Origin: a virus
Virus genome (UHGV): UHGV-0143367
Direction: 5' to 3' (one strand)
Length of the DNA stretch: 39,254 nucleotides
Part shown: in pieces, positions 2,596 to 39,042 of the stretch
How the letters are laid out: the number at the start of each line of letters is the position of its first letter
Position numbering within the stretch: the first letter of the stretch is position 1
Notes under the pieces: generated by a model
Seen by the model: only the letters and a program-made list of their open reading frames with translations
Databases searched by the model: none
What the model was told of the DNA's origin: nothing
Translations under genes and position numbers: made by a program

Positions 2596-3207
2596 TTAGT
2601 TCTGGTCCTCGGCGTAGATCCCGCCGCTAATCAGTACGCCGCCGATTTCACGGATGCCGTAAAGAATCGGAACACCACTCCCCGCGGCCACCTGGTTCGC
2701 CGGCGCACCGAACGAGTAACTTTTCCGGGTGTCTTTTGATTCGTTCGTCATACCCTGCGTCCCTGCTGGAACGAGCATCTGCGCAACACCACCCAGCATC
2801 ATTGCCGCACCCATTTTGTAGAGAAACGGTGATGCTGCTGCGTATGGTGTAAAACTGAGCACGAATCCCACTGCAACTAATACGGCACCAAAAATAGTCT
2901 GGAACGCCCCATTTTTCTTGCTGCCGATAATCACCGGCGCAATGCGGATAACTTCGTGTACGCCATCCAGCTGCAGGTCCTGCTCGCGGATATTGCGTTC
3001 GCCGTTAAAGATGGCATACGTAATACCCCGCTCCTGGCTTGTTTCCAGCCAAAGTTCGAAACCGGGGATCATGATGCAGAGCGCGCGTATCGCTTCACGT
3101 ACGGATGAGACGGACAGCCGGTGCTCGCGCCCAAATAACGTTCCCAGCTTGCCGTACAGGCGCACCAGGACGACTTTTTCAACGGTATTAAGGGATTCAC
3201 TGCCCAT
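2596..3207 (-). CDS. I: Tail assembly protein I-like
   Basis: 203-aa ORF in the lambda I position (between K and J), hydrophobic C-terminal half; synteny-based. Confidence 0.7.
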   Translation of the reverse strand: MGSESLNTVEKVVLVRLYGKLGTLFGREHRLSVSSVREAIRALCIMIPGFELWLETSQERGITYAIFNGERNIREQDLQLDGVHEVIRIAPVIIGSKKNGAFQTIFGAVLVAVGFVLSFTPYAAASPFLYKMGAAMMLGGVAQMLVPAGTQGMTNESKDTRKSYSFGAPANQVAAGSGVPILYGIREIGGVLISGGIYAEDQN

Positions 3208-3904
3208 CTCTATACCTCAGCGTTAACAGCGTACGGTCGCGCCACATGCCGCCGTACGGAACAACTTCACTCAGCCGGCCATACATGTGGTGGAACATCT
3301 TTCCGTCCCCCAGGTAAATGCCGGCATGGTTAATTTCATCGGCCTTGTACTGCATCAGGATGATATCGCCCGGCTGCAGCTCGCTGACGTGCGAGTAAAA
3401 CCCCGCCTCAGCATAGTGCCGAACGTAGAGATTCTCTCCGCGTGTCCACCAGTTATCGGTCCGCTCAAAGTTGGGTAACTCTATGCCACGTTCCTGCTTG
3501 TACCAGTCGCGGATAAGCCCATAGCAGTCCCAACTGCCATGGATAAACGGACGCTTCAGCAGCGGCGGTGTATCGGCTGGCGTGGTGACGGTGTGCTCTC
3601 CGGATGGCCACGACATAATGATCCATGGCAGGCCGCTTTCATGGCATTGCTTCAGGTCTTCTGCAGACGCATGTGGCCCGGCATCAGGATGCGAATGCAC
3701 AACCGCCAGCACCTCGCCAGCGTCCTCAGCATCGGCCCAGGCTTCAGCACTGATCCGGAAAAATTCAGCGGGCTGGTCGTGGGTGTTTTCGCAGGGAATA
3801 TACCGGCGCTGGCGTCCAGCCCGGATAATCAACCCGCAACACTCATGCGGATATACCTTCTCGGCATGCTTCTGGATGGCGGTAATCAGTCGCTGGCTCA
3901 GCAT
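3197..3904 (-). CDS. K: Tail tip assembly protein K (JAB/MPN + NlpC/P60-like)
   Basis: HSHP metal-binding motif (AVVHSHPDAG) and HAGIYLGDG segment; start placed at internal ATG 3904 just after the L stop rather than the upstream ORF-track start at 4003. Confidence 0.75.
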   Translation of the reverse strand: MLSQRLITAIQKHAEKVYPHECCGLIIRAGRQRRYIPCENTHDQPAEFFRISAEAWADAEDAGEVLAVVHSHPDAGPHASAEDLKQCHESGLPWIIMSWPSGEHTVTTPADTPPLLKRPFIHGSWDCYGLIRDWYKQERGIELPNFERTDNWWTRGENLYVRHYAEAGFYSHVSELQPGDIILMQYKADEINHAGIYLGDGKMFHHMYGRLSEVVPYGGMWRDRTLLTLRYRDGQ

Positions 3905-3906
3905 GG

Positions 3907-4656
3907 TTACATCCTTATCAGTGCAATGGCCGGGTAGCCGCCGAACGGCAGCTCTGAGTTTTCGCCCCAGCGCAATTTGCAGCCGGCTACGGTGCCGGGA
4001 CATTCATCTTTCGCCGGGTTGTCGACCCGGTTGCCAAATTTGTCGAAGTAATTTGTTCCGGTATAGCCACAGTCGGCGCCACGGTATTGGCCCTGCAGGC
4101 ACCAGGCGCAACGGCTCAGCATCTGGCGGCCCGGTAGCTTCTGCCCGGTCACATCGACCGGCGAGGATAATTTGAACTGGACAGTGGTGTCGTTCTCCGC
4201 AGACTTGCTGTCGATGTACCAGACCTCCACGCTGTCAGCGGTCGGGTCGGCGCCAGGGTTGCCGTCGGGGAAGTTTTCCGCATCGAGATAATGTGCGTAG
4301 GTCCGGTGAACCGTCACCTTGGCCTGCTTCATGTCCTGGAACATGCCACACAGGGAAGAGATCGAGCCGTCCAGGTTGGCTACCGATAATTTCGGTGTAG
4401 CCGGCGAGCCATCACCGTTCGATTCCATGTCCTCAATCCGGCATGGCCACGCATCGTAGCGTATGCCCTGCCAGAAAATAGGCTTACCGGGCAGCAGGCT
4501 GGCATCATCGCCGGCGGCGAGGATCTCTTCTGCGGTGTACGGGATGGCGTGGTTATGGAAATAAAGCACCTCGGCCCCGAACGCAGTGCCGTCCACCTCG
4601 TACAGTTCGATTTTGCTGCCGGGTTCTAATTTCTGATCATCAGCTGCGATACCCAT
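3907..4656 (-). CDS. L: Tail tip protein L
   Basis: 249 aa; N-terminal IELYEVDG...IFWQGIRYDAWP and C-terminal Cys cluster (CAWC...CGYTG...CPGTVAGC) match lambda L as recalled. Confidence 0.85.
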   Translation of the reverse strand: MGIAADDQKLEPGSKIELYEVDGTAFGAEVLYFHNHAIPYTAEEILAAGDDASLLPGKPIFWQGIRYDAWPCRIEDMESNGDGSPATPKLSVANLDGSISSLCGMFQDMKQAKVTVHRTYAHYLDAENFPDGNPGADPTADSVEVWYIDSKSAENDTTVQFKLSSPVDVTGQKLPGRQMLSRCAWCLQGQYRGADCGYTGTNYFDKFGNRVDNPAKDECPGTVAGCKLRWGENSELPFGGYPAIALIRM

Positions 4657-17376: not shown

Positions 17377-18171
17377 TTGCGTTTTCTGTTACGTTAAAAA
17401 TCACCAAAAAAAAGATCTTATTTCCCACGCGTAAAAATCGACTTGAAGCGGCAGTCCTCAAACACGAAAGGGGTTAGGGATTTTCCCCCCCCCCCCTACC
17501 CCCCGGCTGGCGGCGGTTCTGTAGCCGGCCTGCCGGGGTCCGCTGCTCAGGGCGCGCGGGTCGGGCAATGGGTGTGTGGGCCAGGCGCTGATCTTCTGGT
17601 TGCCGTCGGTGCGGCTGCAATTCACCACAACTGGAAGCGCCCTGGCCTCACACCGCATGCTGAGGCGTGGTGGTTGTCCATCGGGTTCAGGACGCTTCCA
17701 TGTTATGAGCTGGCAATAAAAATCCCGGCGTACCGGGATTCGCTCTGCTGACCCTTGCAGTGGGAGACTGGATCACCTCCTTCATTGCGCTTATGGGTGG
17801 CGCACTCATCACAAGGAGAAGGGCACCAGAAAGCTGTGGCGGGTTATCGCCACTCTTTCCCTGAAGGGTGGCCCTTAGAGCTATGCGCCAACGTTCTGAT
17901 GCCCTTATCGCTGTGATGCCGCCACACTTTCGCAGTGGCCGCGCCCATGCCGTGGGTGGCGCTTAGGGTTCGTCTCTGCTCCCCCGCAGCTGTAACCGGT
18001 GCGCTTATCGGCGTTCGCGCTGCCTTACCGGTGCTTCTTTTCTTATTAACCCTCACCAGATGCAAAGCTGGCTCTCTACTCGGAGACTAGGGGGCCGGTT
18101 ACTACCCAGCCATCGCCGCCGTTCGGCTGCTGCGGTCTACCCGCTTTAATGCTTCATCTTCTTTCCCTCCG
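17377..18171. other. Non-coding GC-rich region upstream of terS; putative cos packaging region containing a C12 homopolymer
   Basis: About 800 bp with no convincing ORF; HNH-terS-terL arrangement typical of cos packaging; C12 run at 17485-17496 followed by TACCCCCC. Confidence 0.4.
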
Positions 18172-18372
18172 TCAGTCCAGATAGAAATTGTCATTCAGCC
18201 GGCGACGATTGCCGTTGCTGGCGTTATGGGGGCAGGCATCCGATGAATGCCCAGCGCCACCGCAATATGAGCAGCGTAGGTTGGCACGGCGGGAAGAACC
18301 GCCCCACGTTTTAGGGCAGTTCGCTACGGTATGCAGCTGCGAGCCGCAGTAGGTACAACGGATATATGCCAT
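18172..18372 (-). CDS. Small protein with two tandem CCHC zinc knuckles (CX2CX4HX4C)
   Basis: 66 aa; CTYCGSQLHTVANC and CSYCGGAGHSSDAC both fit C-X2-C-X4-H-X4-C. Confidence 0.5.
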   Translation of the reverse strand: MAYIRCTYCGSQLHTVANCPKTWGGSSRRANLRCSYCGGAGHSSDACPHNASNGNRRRLNDNFYLD

Positions 18373-18734
18373 CAGTTAAACCGCTCCTTAGCTGTCTTCC
18401 GGCGGTGGCATGGCCAGCACAACGATTCGAGGTTGCTATCGTCATCGGTGCCGCCGTGGGCTTTCGGGATGATGTGATCCACACTTTCAGCTTTCATGCC
18501 TATGCCCCGGCGCCGGCAGTCCTGGCAGAGATATTTATCCCGCATCAGAATGCGATCGCGGCGTATCTCCCATGGTCTTCCATACCCGCGATCCTGTCGG
18601 CTCTTCCCTGGCTGGTAATTACGCCAGCCATCACCGGCGTGCTGCTGGCGATGGCTATCGCAATATCCTGATGGGTCGTTAGTGGCGGTAGAGCATCCTT
18701 TGTGCTTACAAGGGCGCTTAGCGCGGGCTGGCAT
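18372..18734 (-). CDS. HNH endonuclease (terminase-associated)
   Basis: C-terminal CQDCRRRG...VDHIIPKAHGGTDDDSNLESLCWPCHRRK HNH motif; start trimmed to internal Met (MPARAKRP) because the longer ORF overlaps the upstream gene. Confidence 0.8.
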   Translation of the reverse strand: MPARAKRPCKHKGCSTATNDPSGYCDSHRQQHAGDGWRNYQPGKSRQDRGYGRPWEIRRDRILMRDKYLCQDCRRRGIGMKAESVDHIIPKAHGGTDDDSNLESLCWPCHRRKTAKERFN

Positions 18735-19698
18735 TATCGTTTCCCAGCGCGTTGAAAGCAGATCGTACCGCACGAGCCAGGGCAATAGCCGCTTCTTCGG
18801 TTCGACCCCCTGGTACGTTGGGGAGAGTAGCGGCGAGCACTGCTGATAATGTTTCTTTCGCAATATCGTGGCAGGAAAGACCCAATGATGCTGTATGTGC
18901 AAGTGGTGGTAATGCTTTCGATACCATGGTGCTGCTATCACCCCAATTACTGATGATGATTCGCCCACCGCCAGCCAGATTGACAACCATGTCCTTATCG
19001 CTCACCTCAAATGAAATGCCATGAATGTTACTATCGGCACCAGATGCGGACGGGGCATCGTTTACGTTAATGCTCATAGATGCTGTATAGGTTAATGGCG
19101 TTATCTCACCGCAGCTCGTATGTTGCTTAAAGATTTGAGAGGATACTCGGGCATTTGCTATAGCCTGAGCCAGAACGTTCACAGCATCCCCGATACATGG
19201 GCGACCACTTTTCCAAGCATCGTCAAGAATCTTACCTACATCGATGTTGCTATTACTGGTCTTCGGCTTCAGCGTTTCTGCCGCGTGGATAGTTTCCGAA
19301 ATAAATGCGTTATTGATGAAGACTTCACCGTTTTCAATCTTAAATTTTGGTGCAACAAAAGAGGTCATTAAGCACATGTCGTTACTACCAGCCATTGCAT
19401 TGAGGTACTCTTCTGCATTGCTGGATGACACACCTTCGATCCAGTCACTTCCCATCCAATCACGAACTGCACCATTTTTATCAATCGGTCGTAAGCGAAT
19501 CTGCAGGCGTTCGCCACCCTTAAGGCCACCGATTAACGCTCCAACTAATGGCCATGCGATAACCTGTCTTTTCAAACGTCCATCGGCGTTGAGATACTGC
19601 ATTTCAAGCCGCGAATGCTCGCCGCTATTTTCTGGCCACTGCCATTCAACCTGGATACCCCAGACTCGGGGTGACGTTAATACTTGCGGAAGTTGCAT
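18718..19698 (-). CDS. Hypothetical 326-aa protein, possible N-terminal FN3/Ig-like fold
   Basis: AAGGA Shine-Dalgarno before ATG; lower GC than the structural block; no recognisable catalytic motif. Confidence 0.45.
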   Translation of the reverse strand: MQLPQVLTSPRVWGIQVEWQWPENSGEHSRLEMQYLNADGRLKRQVIAWPLVGALIGGLKGGERLQIRLRPIDKNGAVRDWMGSDWIEGVSSSNAEEYLNAMAGSNDMCLMTSFVAPKFKIENGEVFINNAFISETIHAAETLKPKTSNSNIDVGKILDDAWKSGRPCIGDAVNVLAQAIANARVSSQIFKQHTSCGEITPLTYTASMSINVNDAPSASGADSNIHGISFEVSDKDMVVNLAGGGRIIISNWGDSSTMVSKALPPLAHTASLGLSCHDIAKETLSAVLAATLPNVPGGRTEEAAIALARAVRSAFNALGNDNASPR

Positions 19699-19810
19699 TG
19701 AATTTTCCTTTTAGACGTGAGCCTGTCGCACGGCAAAGCCGCCAAGAGTTAACGGATTACCCAGGCTCACTACTGAAAGACTCTCTTTGATGTGCGCGTG
19801 CGATGCGCAT

Positions 19811-19833
19811 AAAAAAACCACCCGAAGGTGGTT
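19811..19833 (-). terminator. Rho-independent terminator (AACCACC-ttcg-GGTGGTT + U7)
   Basis: Perfect 7-bp stem followed by a 7-nt U run on the minus strand. Confidence 0.6.
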
Positions 19834-19839
19834 CATTTC

Positions 19840-19859
19840 ATTGGGACCATGGTCCCAAT
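19840..19859. repeat. SopB-box-like palindrome ATTGGGACCATGGTCCCAAT
   Basis: Perfect 20-bp palindrome, same sequence as 4669-4688 and 32501-32520. Confidence 0.7.
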
Positions 19860-20173
19860 CAGGCAGCCTGTTCGCTGGCCACCGGTGGGTAATGCAGTGT
19901 GCTGTAGACCGGCAGCTCCATTTTGTACGCGTAGTGATACTCAGCGGTCGCGCCAGATGACGCCTGCCAGCCTGGCAGCATCAAAATGGCATCCGCACAG
20001 CGCAGCATCGCAAAGCAGATGTCCATATACTCGCGCGGCTCCATGCCTGCCGGTAGCGTGGCGGGATTAAGGACGACATGCCCATGCTTAGCCAGCCGCT
20101 CAGCTTCTTTGTTGAACGCCTCGCGGTTGAAATTCTCACTGCCTGTCATGGGGCCAGCGATGTAGACTTTCAT
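19859..20173 (-). CDS. DUF4406 / nucleoside 2-deoxyribosyltransferase-like protein
   Basis: 104 aa starting MKVYIAGPMTG, the characteristic N-terminal motif of this fold family as recalled. Confidence 0.5.
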   Translation of the reverse strand: MKVYIAGPMTGSENFNREAFNKEAERLAKHGHVVLNPATLPAGMEPREYMDICFAMLRCADAILMLPGWQASSGATAEYHYAYKMELPVYSTLHYPPVASEQAA

Positions 20174-20436
20174 TCGTCATCCTCAATCAGTGCCGTTAAT
20201 TTGATGGCAAACATCGGTTCGTAATACGGGTCAATCAGTGTCATGAACCAAATCGGGATACCCGATAGCCAATCGGCAGCATCCAGTGTCCATTCCGGCA
20301 CCCAATTCCGCGTGGCCACATCCGGGCATTCATCGTTACGCATGTTGACGTAGACCGGAACACACCCCCAGAACAATCCATAATGCGTGAACTGGCGGCG
20401 TATCTCGGCTTTCGTCATTCTTTTAAAGAGCGCCAT
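20170..20436 (-). CDS. Hypothetical protein
   Basis: 88-aa ORF, start/stop coupled with neighbours. Confidence 0.35.
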   Translation of the reverse strand: MALFKRMTKAEIRRQFTHYGLFWGCVPVYVNMRNDECPDVATRNWVPEWTLDAADWLSGIPIWFMTLIDPYYEPMFAIKLTALIEDDE

Positions 20437-20443
20437 ATTCCCT

Positions 20444-20692
20444 CTACTTCGGTGGGATACAGCCCGCTTCCAGCGCGGCTATATATCCGGTGAGCTTCCC
20501 CATATCGCTCTCCGGGATGACGAAATAACCATCCACATGAGCAATATCAATCGTCGGTTTTTCCGCTGCGCATGGTGCCGCTTTCATTGTCGGTACCAAC
20601 TGATCCGAGTTCCCGCACGCGCCCAAACCTACGCAGATAATCAGCAGGGTTATTGCGCGCATAATCAATGCGCTGTTGCCGCTCATCTTCAC
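20444..20692 (-). CDS. Lipoprotein (possible o-spanin)
   Basis: 82 aa, signal peptide with lipobox LGAC; position downstream of holin/endolysin candidates. Confidence 0.4.
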   Translation of the reverse strand: MKMSGNSALIMRAITLLIICVGLGACGNSDQLVPTMKAAPCAAEKPTIDIAHVDGYFVIPESDMGKLTGYIAALEAGCIPPK

Positions 20693-31841: not shown

Positions 31842-31868
31842 CTGCGCAACTGCGCAGCGTCTTTTTTT
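31842..31868 (+). terminator. Terminator-like hairpin plus T7 run ending ~10 nt before the repA start codon
   Basis: CTGCGC-aact-GCGCAG stem followed by CGTCTTTTTTT, then GGTGA Shine-Dalgarno and ATG. Confidence 0.4.
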
Positions 31869-31878
31869 GGGTGAAATA

Positions 31879-34800
31879 ATGAATTTAACGGAATATTTTC
31901 AACACAAATTTAACTCTGACCCGTTTTCGCTGCTTGATGCAGCATCAAATGAACTGAGTGATCTCGCGAACGCTGCCGGTATCGACTGGCATAAATGCGC
32001 TGGAGATATTCAGCTTTCTGCCTCTCGCGGTTCCGCTGAAAAATTCACAAAGTATGCCCACCATGGTCCTGCCGTTACTGATCCAAAGCTGAAAGGCAAG
32101 GTTGAGATTTACTCCCGCATGGAGTGTTCTCAGGACGGTATCAAATACCCGTTCATCAACTTTGTCTGTAAAGGTGCTGACGCTGGCGTATGGAGTGGCT
32201 TCCAGTTCCTTATCTCTGAATACCGTCGATACAAAGAACAGAACGGTGGGACCGTGGTCCCACTGTCTGCGCGTGAACTGGAGCAGCGTAAACGTGCTGA
32301 GGCGCGCCGCCATGAACGTGAGCGCCAGCAGGCTATCTCTGTGTTTATGGAGTCGCAGCGCCGCGACGCTGACCTGAACGAATACCTGCAGTTCTCCGCC
32401 GCATTCGCCAAGGCACCGGCAGAAGATGGTTCATGGCCATATGCGGTGAAGAAAGGCATCAGCTCTGTTTTCTCATACTGTAACGTAAGACGCGTAACCC
32501 ATTGGGACCATGGTCCCAATTCTAAAGCGGTTAAAAAACAAACTGTTATGGCGATTCCGCTGTCGCATATTGATGACCGTCGGGAAGACCGTGAATCTCG
32601 CGTTGGGCCGATTGTTGGCTGGCAGCGAATCACCGAGAGAAACGACAAGCTGCAGACCCGCGCTGTAGATTCCGGTGACTTTGCCGGTTCGTGTCACATC
32701 ATCGGCCAGCTGCGCGGCGCAACCAGGATCTGTGTTGTTGAAGGGTTCGCGACTGGTGCCAGCGTGTTCGCTGTAGCGAAAAAACGCTTTGATGCTGTTG
32801 TTGTGGCTGTGTCAGCAAATAACGTTATCAAGGTTGTTGATCAGCTGGTCAGCCTGTACCCAGGCATGGAAATCTGGTGCGCACTGGATAACGACCAGAA
32901 ATCGGCGCGGAATGGAAAAGGCAATACCGGGTTAAGAGTCGGCATCGATGTGATGAAGAAATTCCCGCAGGTCCGCTGCACATTCCCGATTTTCGACAGC
33001 AGCGAAACCGAATTAAGCGACTTTAACGATCTCCACCAGGCGCGCGGCGCCACCGAAACCAACCGCCAGCTGTTTTCAAAACAGAACCGCCTGCAGCTGC
33101 CAGGCAATTCCTTTGATGCTGAAATGCTGTCTCTGGCCGTTGCGCCGGTTTCCGATCGCCGCGCGTTCTCGCGCCAGCTGGTACGCTGCATTGATGCCGG
33201 CATGATGCAATGCCCGTCCAAGTTATCCCCGCAGGAGCTGATCTCGCTGATAAAAATGAAGCTGGACCAGCTCGGCGCCGACAAAGCGCTGCACGGTACC
33301 GTGTATAACCGCGTTAAACGCGCCTTCAAACAGAAATGCGACAAGGCCCAGGCTTTCCGATCATTCAGCGAGCGCGTAACGAACCCGGCAATACGCCCCG
33401 ACCACATCACCTATAAGCGGTTTGAAACACCCCACATGACCAAGGAAGTGCTGGATTACATCAAAGCACTGAGCGGCCCGGTAATCGTCCGTGCCGGCAT
33501 GGGGTCGGGCAAATCCAAACACTTGCTGCGCCCTATGATGCACAGCGCGCAGCGCGGCGTTTCGGTGGCGCACCGCGTTTCGCTGATTGGTGGCCTCTGG
33601 GACATGATGACGCGTGCCGACGATGGCCGTCGCATGAATTGCGACATCCTGCACTACCAGGACCCCGGCTATCAGGAGCTGGCGCCGTATGCCAGCAAAC
33701 TGACAATTTGTATTAACTCTATCGTGAAGGGCTGCTGGCAGCCACTGATGCGCAAACACGATTTCTTTGGCCTGGATGAAGCCACCCAGGGCCTGCGCGC
33801 CACGCTTTCCGGTAAAGCGATGGCGCACCCGGTTGATGTATTCAACCGTCTTATCGACTCTATCGCGTACAGCGATGACCACGCGCTGCTGGTTGATGCA
33901 GACGCCAGCGATATCCTGGTAGACCTCTGCGAACTGGCGCTGGCCAAACGCGAACAAACAGGCCTGTCGACCTGGACACAGATCCACGTCATCGAGCTGC
34001 CGGTTGATGTGAAGTACAAAAAAGCCGATGGCACGCGCGAAGCGCGCCGCGTACTTTACACCGACACCGATCGCATCATGGTTGAAGTACTGAAAGCCGT
34101 GGCTGCCGGCGAAAAATTCCTGCTGGCCACTGACTCAACCAACTTTGCCGAACAGTTGCTACTGCAGCTGCGCGACCGCTGGCCAGAAAAGAAATGGCTT
34201 TACGTCAGCCAGGACACAAAGCCGGATCAGGAAGTTGTGGCGTTTACCGACGCGCCGAACCAGCGCGCTAAACTCTACGATGGCCTTATTTATAGCCCGG
34301 CTATCAGTTCTGGCGTATCGATCGAAGAACGGCACTTCACCCGCCATTTCGGCTGCTTCTGCGGCCAGGTAGTGCCGTCCGACGCCATTCAGATGCTGCG
34401 CCGCGACAGGACCGCCACCGAATTTATGGTCGGCCTGAACAAGCTGCCTGGCGTACGCGAAGAGAACGCCGACAACATCCGCCGTGGGTTCCTGCAGGCA
34501 CTGCTGGAAACTGCCGAGATAAACGAAGAATTTACCGACGCCATCCTGGATGGCGACCGCCTTTCCCTTGGTCTGGCGGACACCACCTATGTCCGCATGA
34601 AATTTAAAGTTGCCGCGATGGAGGCCCAGGCCAGAAACGATTTCGCCAACAACCTGATCTGCATTCTCTACGCCGATGGCTATAACGTCAGCCACTTGGC
34701 CGAAGACTCGCTGGCCAGCGAAACCGGCAAAGAACTGCGTAAGGCATCGAAAGAGCGGGTCTGGGATATGACCGTTCTGCGCCATATGGAAGTGGAAACC

Positions 34801-35868
34801 CCGGACGAAGACGAACGCGACGAACTGATGGGCAAGCGATCACTATCTGAAGATGAGCAGGCGCAACTGGCGCGCTGGGATATCGAAAAAGAGTTGATGC
34901 TGGATGTCAGCCCGGAATCTCTGAAATTCCTGCTCGATGGCGGGAAGAAGAAACTGACGCTGGCCGAACTGATGACGATGGATGAAATGACCGCCGCACG
35001 CATTGACCGTGAGCAGCAGGCTTTCACGTTCACCTACCAATTCCGCAAAGGGCCGCGTAACGAATTTGTAACGATCACCGCGCTCAACCGCGAAGCAGCT
35101 GATGCGCAGTTCGACCGCATGCAGCCAGGAATAACCGGCTACACCGTCCAAAGCCGCCCGGTGATGGAAGTAACCCAGCGTACGTACGCATCGCTGCACC
35201 GTAAGGCCGCCAGGGAGTATTTCTCCACCTGCGGTATTAACCCAGATACCGGCGCCGGTGAAGCCAGCCAGGAAGGTATGGCGGAAGCTATGGCCAAACT
35301 TATGGACCCAACCACCGCGGATCGTTTCAACAACGTCCTGCGGTTCGGTGGCTATATAAACCCTAAAGGCCGCCAGAAACGCCCCGAGACGGTTTTCAAA
35401 CAGATCTGTGAGGCATTCGGTTACGCGACTCAGAAACGCCGCCTACCGCGTTCACAGGGCCTCGGTTACGTGTGGTCAATCGTCCCCGAATCCTGGGAAT
35501 TCATTCACGGAATTCTGGCGCGTCGCGCCGAGGCATCACTGTCGTTTGTCCAGATGAAACTGGATGTGGGGGCACCGGAAGAACCGGATCTCGATTGCCG
35601 ATCAAATATAGATGTAAGATCCCAATCTGGATCTGCTGAGACGGCATTTATTGAGGCAACGCTGACGACGATTGAAGAGGCTATCGCTGCGATGCCGGTG
35701 CCATTTGCATGGCTGAGAACCGCACTGACGCCGGAAGAACTGGCACAACTCGCGACTATGCCGCCACGGTTGATACAGGCGACGGTTGCCGGGCTGTTTA
35801 TGGCTGACAATATGTGGCAACTATCAGATGGCCAATACAACGAACTGAAGCGGTTGCAGGCGGTTTAA
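31879..35868 (+). CDS. repA: Replication protein RepA (primase-helicase) of N15-type linear plasmid-prophage
   Basis: About 1329 aa from ATG 31879 (ORF track begins at upstream TTG); Walker A GMGSGKSK; size and position next to cB and telN as in N15. Confidence 0.85.
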   Translation: MNLTEYFQHKFNSDPFSLLDAASNELSDLANAAGIDWHKCAGDIQLSASRGSAEKFTKYAHHGPAVTDPKLKGKVEIYSRMECSQDGIKYPFINFVCKGADAGVWSGFQFLISEYRRYKEQNGGTVVPLSARELEQRKRAEARRHERERQQAISVFMESQRRDADLNEYLQFSAAFAKAPAEDGSWPYAVKKGISSVFSYCNVRRVTHWDHGPNSKAVKKQTVMAIPLSHIDDRREDRESRVGPIVGWQRITERNDKLQTRAVDSGDFAGSCHIIGQLRGATRICVVEGFATGASVFAVAKKRFDAVVVAVSANNVIKVVDQLVSLYPGMEIWCALDNDQKSARNGKGNTGLRVGIDVMKKFPQVRCTFPIFDSSETELSDFNDLHQARGATETNRQLFSKQNRLQLPGNSFDAEMLSLAVAPVSDRRAFSRQLVRCIDAGMMQCPSKLSPQELISLIKMKLDQLGADKALHGTVYNRVKRAFKQKCDKAQAFRSFSERVTNPAIRPDHITYKRFETPHMTKEVLDYIKALSGPVIVRAGMGSGKSKHLLRPMMHSAQRGVSVAHRVSLIGGLWDMMTRADDGRRMNCDILHYQDPGYQELAPYASKLTICINSIVKGCWQPLMRKHDFFGLDEATQGLRATLSGKAMAHPVDVFNRLIDSIAYSDDHALLVDADASDILVDLCELALAKREQTGLSTWTQIHVIELPVDVKYKKADGTREARRVLYTDTDRIMVEVLKAVAAGEKFLLATDSTNFAEQLLLQLRDRWPEKKWLYVSQDTKPDQEVVAFTDAPNQRAKLYDGLIYSPAISSGVSIEERHFTRHFGCFCGQVVPSDAIQMLRRDRTATEFMVGLNKLPGVREENADNIRRGFLQALLETAEINEEFTDAILDGDRLSLGLADTTYVRMKFKVAAMEAQARNDFANNLICILYADGYNVSHLAEDSLASETGKELRKASKERVWDMTVLRHMEVETPDEDERDELMGKRSLSEDEQAQLARWDIEKELMLDVSPESLKFLLDGGKKKLTLAELMTMDEMTAARIDREQQAFTFTYQFRKGPRNEFVTITALNREAADAQFDRMQPGITGYTVQSRPVMEVTQRTYASLHRKAAREYFSTCGINPDTGAGEASQEGMAEAMAKLMDPTTADRFNNVLRFGGYINPKGRQKRPETVFKQICEAFGYATQKRRLPRSQGLGYVWSIVPESWEFIHGILARRAEASLSFVQMKLDVGAPEEPDLDCRSNIDVRSQSGSAETAFIEATLTTIEEAIAAMPVPFAWLRTALTPEELAQLATMPPRLIQATVAGLFMADNMWQLSDGQYNELKRLQAV
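32247..32262. repeat. SopB-box-like inverted repeat TGGGACC-GT-GGTCCCA inside repA
   Basis: Direct match; encodes ...GGTVVP... in the RepA frame. Confidence 0.65.
32501..32520. repeat. SopB-box-like palindrome ATTGGGACCATGGTCCCAAT inside repA
   Basis: Perfect 20-bp palindrome; encodes ...HWDHGPN... in the RepA frame. Confidence 0.7.
35585..35640. other. Candidate replication-origin element inside the 3' end of repA: four GATC sites in 47 bp with inverted repeat AGATCC...GGATCT
   Basis: GATC at 35587, 35600, 35618, 35630; the N15 ori maps within the 3' part of repA (recalled, not verified here). Confidence 0.3.
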
Positions 35869-35878
35869 GGGGATATCT

Positions 35879-36220
35879 ATGTCGACTACTGATTTTTTGA
35901 AAACACTGGATCGTGTCCAGCTGCAGTTCTGCCGGAATAAGTGCGACGAAATGCTTCGTGCTATCCAGGAAGAACAAAAGAAGGTCGCCTGGGCGGTAAC
36001 TGATGGCTCGGTCAACTACGGCTGGTACCGAACTGAGGACTACCTTAAAGCTGTCGAATGCCTGGTACGCGAAGCTGAGAAGCGCTGGAACGAAGAGACT
36101 GAAGAAGACAAAGGCAACCCGCAAACTCGCGGCTGGCTGAACTTTTCTATTCAGGGCCAGCGCCTGCCGGCGTCCGAATACGAAGCGCTGTTTGCTGATG
36201 GCCAGTGGGGGTTAACGTGA
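35879..36220 (+). CDS. Hypothetical protein, first gene of operon downstream of repA
   Basis: 113 aa; strong Shine-Dalgarno (AAGGGGA) 10 nt after the repA stop. Confidence 0.45.
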   Translation: MSTTDFLKTLDRVQLQFCRNKCDEMLRAIQEEQKKVAWAVTDGSVNYGWYRTEDYLKAVECLVREAEKRWNEETEEDKGNPQTRGWLNFSIQGQRLPASEYEALFADGQWGLT

Positions 36221-36597
36221 TCTACAAATATGAAAACTTGTGTGAGAAAGGATTCGTTCGAATTCCCGTAAGCAGGGCTACGCATAACAAAATGCTGCCA
36301 AACTGCAAGCAACGATTTGGAGCAAAAATTGAGTATTACTTCGAGCCAGAATCTCAGATATTCGAGGCACAGTATTTCACTTCGGCATGGATGAAGGTTT
36401 TGCTCATCGTTGTCATGTTTCTTCCTGCAATCGTCATGCAGGGTGTTCCCAGAACTATTCGTGACACTGGCGATTTAATTCACCAACGGGAAAGAGGGAA
36501 ATTTTCGTCTGATAGATGGTTTTTGAAACGTGAAAAGACGACAGATGGCGCACTTGAAAGTTATATCGACCAGAAACTACGTGAGGTAGGGGCATGA
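36205..36597 (+). CDS. Hypothetical membrane protein (non-ATG start)
   Basis: GTG start at 36205 or 36217 overlapping the upstream stop; one transmembrane helix (WMKVLLIVVMFLPAIVMQGV). Confidence 0.4.
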   Translation: MGVNVIYKYENLCEKGFVRIPVSRATHNKMLPNCKQRFGAKIEYYFEPESQIFEAQYFTSAWMKVLLIVVMFLPAIVMQGVPRTIRDTGDLIHQRERGKFSSDRWFLKREKTTDGALESYIDQKLREVGA

Positions 36598-36977
36598 TTG
36601 ATATTAACGTAAAAAAGCTAACTGACTACGATCTGGATGAGCTTAAGCAAGATATTGCACGAGAAATTGAACGCCGCGCCAGTGGCCCGACCCGCGTCGT
36701 TTATGTGGTGACTGAGTTTGGAGAGCATCGGGCCTTTGCTGATTTTCGCTGCGCGGCGATCTGCTTTTCTGACATAGCTCAATCTGTTCTGGAAGATGCA
36801 GGGACCAAAGAAGGAACGGAAATGTTTTATATGAATAAAGGTACCCTGCTTTATGGTATCAGACCTGTAGAAATGACGCTGAATGACTTTGAGTTGAAAG
36901 TTGAGCAGAAGTATTTCGACGATGTGTGCTACGAAAAGCGGCTGCAGGAAATGTTTCCAGAAACGGAGCTTAAATAA
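36594..36977 (+). CDS. Hypothetical protein
   Basis: 127 aa; ATGA overlap with upstream stop indicates translational coupling. Confidence 0.45.
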   Translation: MIDINVKKLTDYDLDELKQDIAREIERRASGPTRVVYVVTEFGEHRAFADFRCAAICFSDIAQSVLEDAGTKEGTEMFYMNKGTLLYGIRPVEMTLNDFELKVEQKYFDDVCYEKRLQEMFPETELK

Positions 36978-37140: not shown

Positions 37141-39042
37141 TTAATTTTCTGGGAAATACGCAAACCATGCTGATTTCATGGCACTGCTGATACTATCCGC
37201 CGCGCCACTCCAGGCGTATAGCTGCCCCTTGTATTTGAAACGGATCGTCCAGCTGCCGTCGTCACTACGAACGGGCGCGGAGAAGCGTGGACGAGTGTCT
37301 ATTGGTACTGGTTTTTCCTCTTCGGCCTCGGCGGTCACGCCATCTTCTCGGCCTTCCTCTTCAGCTTCCAGCGCCTGGGTATCGTCACTGGTTTCCTCTC
37401 TATCGGCACCGCTATCGCCAGCGAGGTCGTCTTCACCATCCAGTTCGTCAGAGGTTATGACAATAGAGGGCGCATCTGCATTGTTAATCGTACTGCTCAT
37501 AGCCAGCGCCTCAGCAACAAAATCAAGATACCGGCGAACTAGCGTCGGGTTAAATCCAGCATCTCGTAATATTTTTGTGTTGATGACGATATCAGCTGAT
37601 TCCTCCACCAGCCGCTTTGTTGTTTCATGAATACGGATACCGGCATCGCCCCTGGCGAAGCCAGGCATTTGGTCGTCAAGCGCTTGTAGAGCAGCGAGGC
37701 GCTTATTTTCAATCCCCGTTTCCGGGCGCCAGCTGCGTGAGAAATTATGCAGTTTGAACTGTTTGTAGTGCAGCTGCGTATTTTCGTCGTCATGCCCCAG
37801 GATTTCAGAGAAAAAGACGTCCTCATCAACGTTTTTCCAGCGCGGGTCGTAGCGGAAAAACGCCTCATAGGTGATACGCGCATAAATTGCGCGCGTGTCT
37901 TTGAATGTTCGGCGGTCGTCGCCGAAGAACAGCTTCGCGTGCTGGTTAAATGTGTTACCAAGAATTGATGCGATGCGCACATTTGCGGCCCGGTAGCTAT
38001 CATCGTTCAACAGAGATCTGATTTCGTCAAAATCAGCCGCTGCGGGGCAACTTCTCAGTTCATTTAAACGTTGAACGAACAGGGCCGGGTCGCACAGCAC
38101 ATAAATTTTACGCCCCTTATCCTCGCCGGTTCGTTTTTTGGCCTGCCCGTAGAAAATAACTTCATACTTGCCGGTAACCTCAAATTCTCCCTGAACCATC
38201 ACCTCAATCAATCGACGCCCGGATACGGCTGCTAGCGCGAACGCCAGCGGCGCCATATCCTTACGTTGCGTGATAAGTGATGGTTCAAACGCCTTGTAGA
38301 TCTGCTCGGTCACAGCCTGCATATATTTGGGGTAGTCCAAGAGTACAGTTGACCGTTTCTTCTCGCTGAGCACCTCGCCCCAGCGCTGCTGTATCGATGA
38401 GCGTTCTGCCGGACTCAACTGCAGGTGATACAGAATTTCATGGTTGATTTTCAGGCCGTTCAGATCATCCAACAAGCGGGTTCCCTGTTGGAACGCGGCA
38501 TGCATTTCGGTTTCGACCGACTTCCAGTCTTGGCTGGTCAACGCGTTAAGATAGATGCTCCAGGCAGGGTATTTTTTTGCCAGGCGCGTCAATTTTTTCT
38601 CCGCAGCCGGTCCGAACTTCATACCCGAAAGCACCTCCGCCAGCGGCATAATTTCCTTCAGTTGGCCCTGTAGATTGCCGTATGCCTGACGAATATCTGC
38701 CGCAGGCATAGATTGCCACGCCTGTAATTCAGCACTGTAGGCGGGGTATTTTGCCGCTAACTTTTCAATGCTGCTGGTGAAGTGATGGTGCAAACGGTCG
38801 TCGAACTGTTTACGAATACGGGTCATATACGCGTTATAAGTATTGGCTGTAATGCGTTTCTTCAAACCGTTACCACGGAACTTCCTTTTATCTAAAAATA
38901 GCGCGTTTTTAACACGTGTAGCCGCAGCCTTATATTTTCGTGTCTTATCTCCCTGTGGGATGTCGGACGCTTCGATAGCGTCAACGTCCGCCACCAAATC
39001 AGAGATGATTTTACCAATTCCGCCATCGCCTAGCTTCGCCAT
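37141..39042 (-). CDS. telN: Protelomerase (telomere resolvase) TelN
   Basis: 633 aa; long blocks match N15 TelN as recalled (QGDKT, NALF.DKRKFRG.GL.KRITAN, HLQLSPAER.SIQQRW, MAPLAFALAAVSGRR, WKNVDEDVFF.EILGHDDENTQLHYKQFKL.NFSR.WRPE, MPGFARGDAG); acidic C-terminal tail; GAGGGGGG Shine-Dalgarno. Confidence 0.95.
   Translation of the reverse strand: MAKLGDGGIGKIISDLVADVDAIEASDIPQGDKTRKYKAAATRVKNALFLDKRKFRGNGLKKRITANTYNAYMTRIRKQFDDRLHHHFTSSIEKLAAKYPAYSAELQAWQSMPAADIRQAYGNLQGQLKEIMPLAEVLSGMKFGPAAEKKLTRLAKKYPAWSIYLNALTSQDWKSVETEMHAAFQQGTRLLDDLNGLKINHEILYHLQLSPAERSSIQQRWGEVLSEKKRSTVLLDYPKYMQAVTEQIYKAFEPSLITQRKDMAPLAFALAAVSGRRLIEVMVQGEFEVTGKYEVIFYGQAKKRTGEDKGRKIYVLCDPALFVQRLNELRSCPAAADFDEIRSLLNDDSYRAANVRIASILGNTFNQHAKLFFGDDRRTFKDTRAIYARITYEAFFRYDPRWKNVDEDVFFSEILGHDDENTQLHYKQFKLHNFSRSWRPETGIENKRLAALQALDDQMPGFARGDAGIRIHETTKRLVEESADIVINTKILRDAGFNPTLVRRYLDFVAEALAMSSTINNADAPSIVITSDELDGEDDLAGDSGADREETSDDTQALEAEEEGREDGVTAEAEEEKPVPIDTRPRFSAPVRSDDGSWTIRFKYKGQLYAWSGAADSISSAMKSAWFAYFPEN

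Follow-up and report, generated by a model that had tools for sequence, protein, structure and literature searches.

A 326-residue protein of the N15 gp59 family, with a mosaic build derived from the central tail fibre J, is carried by a terminator-leader cassette in an N15-like phage-plasmid

The moron concept for lambdoid phages, with HK97 gp15 as an example, is reportedly set out by Juhala et al. 2000 and Cumby et al. 2012. Morons in the HK97/HK022 sense are extra genes of deviant G+C content between genes that are adjacent in relatives, flanked by transcription signals (a promoter upstream and a terminator downstream) and placed at more than one late-operon position. The lambda N leader, which is cut by RNase III, is an example of a processed 5' leader of a phage gene. 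Among the described proteins closest to the one treated here are N15 gp59 (AAC19096.1), FSL SP-016_00205 of Salmonella phage FSL SP-016 and the short DUF1983 proteins (phrog_13555, phrog_29765 and phrog_17079), and a further relation leads to the central tail fibre J (lambda J, N15 gp21 and the CFP of F-type pyocins). In the central fibre of F7 pyocin, the order of parts is FNIII-2, spine, a coiled coil switching to a beta-prism, the non-switching beta-prism base, an intertwined beta-helix and a distal prism (bioRxiv 10.64898/2026.01.28.702463). In the present work, an open reading frame (ORF) of 326 amino acids (aa) at 18718..19698 on the minus strand of the virus genome UHGV-0143367 was analyzed. 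The whole stretch of 39,254 nucleotides (nt) is called the window in the following; it is part of an N15-like linear telomere phage-plasmid from Citrobacter freundii. The ORF encodes a mosaic protein of the N15 gp59/short-DUF1983 family and is carried as the cargo of a conserved cassette.

The gene for the 326-aa protein is real and conserved. It starts with ATG and has homologues, and a Shine-Dalgarno (SD)-type AAGGA stands 8 nt ahead of the ATG. The exact protein is deposited from C. freundii as WP_368904238.1. Among 5.8 billion proteins searched, 51 relatives were found; they measure 196-356 aa and come from Citrobacter, Salmonella, Kluyvera and Leclercia. In PHROGs, phrog_13555 was matched at 1.2e-40 by residues 3-140 (profile positions 7-152 of 232), and tblastn returned N15 gp59 (2e-20) and FSL SP-016_00205 (3e-29), with 38% identity over the first ~140 residues. 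A preliminary description of the locus had called the ORF an orphan, which is contradicted by these homologues. The following of its statements on the gene were confirmed: the G+C content is reduced (45-49% at 19000-19600 versus 52-59% in the flanks), the gene order places the ORF between the lysis genes and HNH/cos/terminase, and no catalytic or defence family match was obtained for the protein in Pfam, NCBIfam or PADLOC. A catalytic or defence function was rejected on the latter grounds.

The ORF is the cargo of a three-part mobile unit that consists of a terminator (19811..19834, minus strand), a leader of ~105 nt (19699..19810, minus strand) and the gene. The ~115 bases between terminator and ATG are ~91% identical in the lambdoid phages mEp390, mEp237/213/043, HK639 and FSL SP-016, though the flanking genes differ, and the leader thereby precedes different genes. 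A single copy of it is present in the window. The leader element was found in 108 of 5426 complete Escherichia coli genomes, including that of Nissle 1917, and in enterobacterial plasmids; for a 28-mer from its core, at least 120 IMG/VR contigs gave exact matches. A set of 125 first ORFs following the leader was collected. A single-linkage mosaic superfamily accounted for 76 of them, the 326-aa ORF included, and combines at least five unrelated N-terminal domains with PF09327 pieces and a helical tail. A soluble 485-aa glycosyltransferase made up another 21 cargos, and the rest were small ORFs. By same-strand marker genes, all classifiable leader copies were co-oriented with the late operon and fell into two slots. 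The first extends from the lysis genes to HNH/terminase, with glycosyltransferases ahead of the latter in some cases; the second, with ~14 copies, lies between major tail protein V and chaperone G/tape-measure. This placement of the cassette at two late-operon positions in other phages agrees with the accessory-slot and mosaic, low-G+C character proposed for the gene earlier. The gene also shows the insertion between genes adjacent in relatives and the deviant base composition that are expected of a moron. The family is common, and one Salmonella cluster alone was present on at least 1000 contigs. As a separate observation, the 485-aa glycosyltransferase (phrog_1579) and a ~217-aa glucosyltransferase (phrog_854) were often seen behind the leader, just before HNH/terminase in lambdoid phages (L001 626-3220; L004 725-3306).

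The intrinsic terminator is formed by a hairpin (19834-19815) and a T-run on the strand of the ORF and stands directly 5' of the leader. A strong terminator at this place had been pointed out in the preliminary description, but its designation as the gene's own terminator was wrong because it lies upstream of the gene. The ORF runs into the HNH gene, with 17 nt shared between its stop and the HNH start (18734), and no terminator was found between the two. A hairpin and T-run stood immediately 5' of the leader in 65 of 93 unique copies, with differing stem sequences.

The structure of the leader was predicted with RNAalifold from 34 non-redundant copies. It comprises a hairpin, P0 (19808-19805 paired with 19797-19794, minus strand), and a long composite helix on the same strand, in which GUGAGCCUG (19770-19762) pairs with CAGGCUCAC (19725-19717). 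At the base of the helix, an invariant UCUUU (19780-19776) is predicted to pair with the SD sequence AAAGG; the SD core AAGGA is located at 19710-19706. The inner stem GGCAA/UUGCC covaries, with C-G in 17, U-G in 8 and U-A in 7 copies. In the pair count, 98.4% of cells were paired compared with at most 46% in a slid register, and four pairs carried double changes; the covariation support is limited because most of the main helix never varies. In the divergent copies of Leclercia and N15, the outer stem is kept via compensatory changes. Between TTTATGCGC and AAAAGGAAA, conservation reached at least 90% at almost all positions in a set of 100 unique copies (~95% overall), a figure that is partly due to ascertainment since the 3' end served as the search key. 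Several explanations for the leader were tried and rejected. When the whole window was scanned against Rfam, no hit was obtained in any part of it, the leader included, and weak sub-threshold hits concerned the terminator hairpin only; the leader is thus not a known RNA in this collection. For an RNA thermometer, the predicted pairing of the SD (~75%) would have to change with temperature, and it was the same from 20 to 45 °C. The leader is also not conserved coding sequence because the frame is broken by a TAA in the window and open in other copies, and a small coding ORF was rejected. The leader appears to be an undescribed RNA motif, which is predicted to occlude the SD. In principle it resembles SD-sequestering or RNase III-processed phage leaders such as that of lambda N, with an imperfect helix of ~20 bp and the SD next to the start codon. 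It differs from the lambda N type in that no sequence relationship exists and the predicted SD pairing is stable over the above temperature range.

The N-terminal part of the protein was compared with known folds and tail proteins. Structure prediction had been recommended in the preliminary description, which suspected a possible N-terminal FN3/Ig-like region. Using AlphaFold2 (AF2), residues 1-95 were modelled as a beta-sandwich with a predicted local distance difference test (pLDDT) score of ~80, and Foldseek with this model returned FN3 domains only (E≤1e-4). For residues 105-326, pLDDT was <50 in two AF2 runs of the monomer and no confident model was obtained. In BLASTP, residues 8-102 aligned with residues 746-841 of the J protein of the window and residues 733-824 of N15 gp21 (~33% identity, ~1e-12), which is the last FN3 of J, and residues 94-135 aligned with residues 957-991 of N15 gp21. 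Besides phrog_13555, weaker PHROGs matches to "central tail fiber J" families (phrog_31 and phrog_2589) were found, and J proteins of several siphophages matched the ORF across the FN3 domain in tblastn. The FN3 region was thereby corroborated; together with the beginning of the "spine" it occupies residues 1-105 (19384..19698, minus strand). Residues 116-140 (19279..19353, minus strand) form an "F-K-I-x-NG-x-VFI-NN-AFI" motif, a PF09327 fragment that belongs to the distal non-switching part of J-type fibres and aligns to N15 gp21 957-991 and to residues 1132-1172 of the F2-pyocin fibre. The family profile matched the solved J-like fibres 9l9p_S and 25vf_A (F2-pyocin fibre) in two places each, the FN3 (~732-827) and the distal "F-V-NG-VFI--A-I" motif near their C-termini.

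From these alignments, residues 1-~110 of the protein derive from the last FN3 and the start of the spine of J, and residues ~116-140 from the distal J motif. The J-type FNIII domain, the "SxxNAxEYL" spine start and the distal "F-V-NG-VFI--A-I" motif are common to J and the 326-aa protein; the non-switching distal region of the CFP in F7 pyocin lies in the part that carries the latter motif. On the plan of the F7 pyocin fibre, the ORF retains FNIII-2, the beginning of the spine and one portion of the distal region that does not switch, and lacks the hub and the fold-switch segment. Unlike J, the ORF has neither the hub domains nor the coiled-coil/beta-prism fold-switch segment, it measures 326 aa versus ~1100 aa, and its gene stands far away from those of the tail. 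The ~700-aa N-terminal hub of J/CFP has no counterpart, with homology beginning at J residue ~740. PF09327 (Phage_Tail_Tip) scored 13.9 bits on the protein against a cut-off of 22, over residues 116-139 only. Because the hub domains are missing and PF09327 remains below its cut-off, the 326-aa protein is not a J protein. The preliminary description had named clear homology to a standard virion structural protein as an argument against its proposal of a conversion, exclusion or receptor function. This argument applies in part, the homology to the tail-tip fibre J being clear for the N-terminal third.

With N15 gp59, FSL SP-016_00205 and the short DUF1983 proteins, the protein shares the N-terminal FN3, the J-derived mosaic build and the slot. 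As with other members of the gp59 family, the place of the ORF is in the late operon ahead of cos/terminase, and it is preceded by a terminator and the conserved leader. N15 gp59 itself follows an annotated terminator and the leader in a divergent form; at the SP-016 copy the leader is present and the terminator hairpin is absent. A full-length match with the helical end "...[KR/L]PGG[LI][LI][WY]" was not obtained. The ORF ends in "...NALGNDNASPR", the alternative type-B end common to a minority of members, and other members carry PF09327 pieces that score above the cut-off. Judged from these comparisons, the ORF is best regarded as a partial family member that belongs by its N-terminal 140 residues and its genomic setting and departs from the family at its C-terminal end. 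In the phage search, the Klebsiella telomere phage of the PMC12042878 lysogen proteome gave no match to the ORF. In the literature on N15 gp59, HK639 gene 13, FSL SP-016 and DUF1983, nothing functional was found.

The remainder of the protein is composed of exchangeable modules. Residues 141-228 (19015..19278, minus strand) form a middle module of low AF2 confidence that is common to many family members with differing ends. Residues 229-326 (18721..19014, minus strand) contain fast-evolving C-terminal modules that occur in a small family only. They consist of an inserted "VVNLAGGGRIIISNWGD" beta unit (residues 229-262), which elsewhere is a free 74-aa ORF or N-terminal in other members, and a helical end "...AVRSAFNALGNDNASPR" (residues 263-326), which is the alternative to the commoner family end "...ALKPGGLLY/IW". 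Unlike the rest of the gp59 family, the ORF thus carries modules known only from a few Citrobacter, Salmonella and related elements. When 1.84 billion representatives were searched exhaustively with HMMER, and likewise in a word search, no relatives of the C-terminal half were obtained beyond this small enterobacterial family. The possibility that the C-terminal half is the receptor-binding domain of a full-length J was rejected by the same searches. Three long repeat proteins among the C-terminal hits (P0108-P0110) look like repeat-driven chance matches.

Further shuffling of small units was noted in the family. A small ORF of 45-65 aa, "MQFGKKSKSGLRAF...DKKGK.RIV.G", is at times situated between leader and family gene or fused N-terminally (L013 5850-5987; L016; L107). 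A similar "VVNxAGGGRIxxxxWG" unit occurs free, N-terminally or internally, and together with the "MQFGKKSKSGLRAF" ORF it behaves as a shuffling beta unit. These small beta units resemble the extreme C-terminus of N15 gp21. In addition, one family branch has an ~80-aa non-FN3 N-terminal domain, and some of its members are called "Fur-regulated protein" by NCBI (e.g. L006 3275-4003); the E. coli Nissle 1917 copy of this branch (L134 4275-5003) is annotated as hypothetical protein only. The name was followed as a lead and dropped, as no literature source was found and no Fur box was seen in the leader by eye.

Selection on the ORF was estimated from the ratio of nonsynonymous to synonymous substitution rates (dN/dS) against four orthologues from sister plasmids. 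All orthologues are intact and show in-frame indels only. For the FN3 part, dN/dS was 0.11-0.26. Residues 106-228 gave values of 0.3-0.45 in most pairs and up to ~1 in the two closest pairs, and residues 229-326 gave values >1 in close pairs. The latter are based on few substitutions; the segment is therefore under at least relaxed constraint and possibly under diversifying selection. The middle and C-terminal parts of the ORF are among the most divergent segments of the stretch compared between the sister plasmids. In the most distant sister, identity falls to 75% in the middle part, and the C-terminal segment aligns only partly. Most neighbouring genes are 92-100% identical among the sisters, and in some comparisons a divergence similar to that of the ORF is reached by the Zn-knuckle ORF, the cos region and TerS. 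Taken together, the pattern is that of a functional gene whose N-terminal part is constant and whose C-terminal part varies.

Transcription signals were searched in the surroundings of the gene. No sigma-70-like promoter was detected in 18000-20600 by consensus scan, so a promoter of the gene's own, as in a moron, was not found; the nearest promoter-like site on the strand of the ORF is located at 23996-23969 and is the only good one there. A promoter inside or before the leader was rejected in the absence of a consensus site, and a start site inside the leader is also unlikely because the conserved helix would be destroyed. The terminator ahead of the ORF is one of three on the late strand. 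In an observation that concerns this strand as a whole, the promoter-like site at 23996-23969 is followed by strong terminators at 23244-23226, 22018-22000 and 19834-19815, which has a pR'/tR'-type look and would need antitermination. This is the pattern expected of a Q-antiterminated late operon, as annotated in N15. Like the morons of HK97 and HK022, the ORF is an extra gene of deviant G+C content between genes adjacent in relatives, with flanking transcription signals and more than one late-operon position. It differs from them by an upstream terminator and an SD-sequestering leader in place of an upstream promoter and a downstream terminator; no terminator of its own follows the gene, as described above.

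No transmembrane segment, lipobox or signal peptide was recognized in the 326-aa protein. The highest Kyte-Doolittle mean over 19 residues was 0.9, and the N-terminus, MQLPQVLTSPRVWG, is not hydrophobic. The protein is accordingly predicted to be soluble and cytoplasmic, which is another difference from the membrane proteins of lambdoid morons. Envelope exclusion proteins (Cor, Llp, HK97 gp15 and the Sie types) are marked by a signal peptide, lipobox or transmembrane segment, features that the ORF does not share.

As a tentative interpretation, which we prefer without holding it to be probable, the ORF may encode a late-expressed, translationally throttled and probably trimeric fibre-like accessory protein with a fast-evolving C-terminus that sets specificity. 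The gene would be transcribed only when Q-type antiterminated late transcription passes the upstream terminator, and it would be co-transcribed with the HNH and terminase genes. Pairing of the leader with the SD would throttle or gate translation, as would suit a minor component. The product could then assemble, via the J motif, into a J-like and probably trimeric fibre piece that acts in adsorption or at the cell surface, either attached to the virion or released at lysis. The conserved FN3 would serve as the constant part and the fast-evolving C-terminus as the determinant of specificity. Late-only expression, trimerisation and an adsorption-related role of the product are what we infer from the features of the locus, and several points weigh against them. 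A place in the virion and the time of production are conjectural for every family member. The protein lacks the hub domains of J, and no docking domain is recognizable in it. Trimerisation is assumed from the J motif only because two thirds of the protein are without a confident model. The dN/dS >1 of the C-terminus could reflect relaxed constraint. About 30% of the leader copies have no upstream terminator, the promoter scan used the sigma-70 consensus only, and among the other cargos of the leader, a membrane protein and a small protein that looks secreted (C22 and C25) are similar to classical lysogen-expressed morons.

A rival explanation, which we regard as unlikely yet serious, is a classical moron, expressed in the lysogen via an unrecognized promoter or terminator read-through, whose product benefits host or prophage, for instance by exclusion of related siphophages or a surface change. 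The low G+C content and the patchy occurrence among related phages suit a moron, as does the position of the cassette at two unrelated intergenic sites of the late operon. Apart from small membrane or secreted ORFs, the leader precedes glycosyltransferases that PHROGs files as "moron", a fast-evolving C-terminus would be in keeping with an arms race, and one family branch carries the name "Fur-regulated protein", the source of which was not found. On the other hand, no promoter-like site was present by sigma-70 consensus scan, a terminator stands directly upstream in ~70% of the leader copies, and the SD is predicted to be sequestered. Without signal peptide, lipobox or transmembrane segment, the product cannot reach an incoming phage at the envelope. 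PADLOC gave no match, and the stop overlaps the late HNH gene. The preliminary description had considered the gene a candidate for lysogenic conversion, exclusion or receptor interaction. The missing promoter, the missing export and membrane signals, the late-operon position behind a terminator and the shared bases with HNH speak against conversion and exclusion, and a receptor or surface role is plausible.

The glycosyltransferases suggest yet another function, to which we assign a low probability. The protein might be a substrate, scaffold or targeting subunit for the 485-aa and 217-aa enzymes, and these partners would have been lost or replaced in the window. One or both of them are encoded downstream in ~50 of 129 leader copies, the 485-aa enzyme follows 20 of 50 assessable family cargos, and in mEp390 a glycosyltransferase stands directly behind the leader. 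However, the window and its sister plasmids contain no glycosyltransferase, 30 of the 50 assessable cargos are without one, and none accompanies the family members in the V-to-G slot. A decoy or competitor is still less probable in our view. As a mimic of the J fibre, the protein would absorb an immune sensor of tail tips or poison the central fibres of co-infecting related phages. A soluble cytoplasmic protein that is built of J modules without the hub and evolves quickly would be suited to this; the proposal is pure inference, no defence or anti-defence family matched, the N-terminal domains of the family are very diverse, and to our knowledge no host sensor for J has been described. We give least credence to a functionless spare part, i.e., a decaying duplicate or raw material for recombination with J. 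The mosaic of J-like pieces and the relaxed or positive dN/dS of the C-terminus could be read in this way, but the ORF is intact in all orthologues, its FN3 is under strong purifying selection, and a dedicated, highly conserved leader and ribosome-binding site precede it. In the form of a spare part for homologous recombination this explanation was rejected, as exchange with the resident J is ruled out because the 33% aa identity between the two is too low. Compared with these explanations, the fibre-like accessory protein produced late in the lytic cycle remains the preferred one.

The window carries further features of an N15-like element. An ORF of 1333 aa (31867-35868, plus strand) and one of 633 aa (37141-39042, minus strand) match N15 RepA and TelN (protelomerase), respectively, in size and position only, and a CI-like repressor is also encoded. 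On the minus strand, the late genes follow in the order two methylases, holin and endolysin, several small genes, a DUF4406 gene, the 326-aa ORF, HNH, Zn-knuckle ORF, cos region, TerS and TerL, and head/tail genes. The central tail fibre gene J is truncated by the start of the window, with 866 residues visible. The 7 kb surrounding the ORF are nearly identical to C. freundii contig JAWGLG010000027.1, with a single mismatch in the cos region; the nearest deposited phages are phiKO2 and Klebsiella telomere phages, with ~75% nucleotide identity. The upstream neighbour, a DUF4406/nucleoside 2-deoxyribosyltransferase-like gene (19859..20173, minus strand), is the last gene ahead of the terminator. 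Downstream, the HNH endonuclease gene (18372..18734, minus strand) starts with ATG at 18734, in the 17-nt overlap with the last codons of the ORF; the same overlap exists in L135 (HNH gene 3965-4327, ORF 3001-3981). A 66-aa double Zn-knuckle ORF (18172-18372, minus strand) stands right behind HNH and ahead of cos. It is kept in the sister plasmids and is also present in L140, where a Dcm-type methylase replaces HNH.

A 16-bp palindrome, TGGGACCNNGGTCCCA, occurs in the window in eight exact copies (4671, 11202, 16901, 19842, 23319, 29046, 32247 and 32503) and two near copies (695 and 37115), compared with 0.11 expected by chance. Two copies lie inside the repA-like ORF. N15 has four such sites, fewer than the window. 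The palindromes are likely to form a genome-wide centromere set of the SopB type, with putative SopB binding. The sopC/SopB-type palindrome at the 326-aa ORF, TGGGACCATGGTCCCA (19842-19857, strandless), is real, but the special link to the gene that the preliminary description had drawn is not, because this site is one of the window-wide copies.

In Klebsiella telomere phages, telocin/immunity pairs sit between RepA and protelomerase (PMC12042878). A telocin was considered for the 326-aa ORF and rejected: telocins are encoded between repA and telN and the ORF between lysis and cos, no bacteriocin family was hit and no similarity was found. In the window, the slot between RepA and protelomerase (36205-36977, plus strand) holds two small ORFs, one of 130 aa without Pfam match and one of 127 aa (DUF5448), and no recognizable bacteriocin.

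In relation to what was known, the J-derived family is widespread, and the ORF adds a C-terminal variant to it. In place of an orphan moron with its own terminator and SopB box, the window now offers a defined family, a defined cassette and a testable expression logic. A broader proposal, which we advance as speculative and improbable, is that the ORF family represents J-derived "mini-fibres" with a dedicated and widely spread regulatory RNA leader that gates translation in the late operon, and that these proteins modulate the central tail fibre or the receptor. The interest of the finding lies mostly in the leader and the family and less in the copy of the window. The leader could serve as a portable regulatory part and as a marker for accessory-gene cassettes in late operons. 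If the family does tune adsorption or host range, it would be an overlooked specificity determinant in temperate siphophages and phage-plasmids, with a bearing on host-range prediction and engineering.

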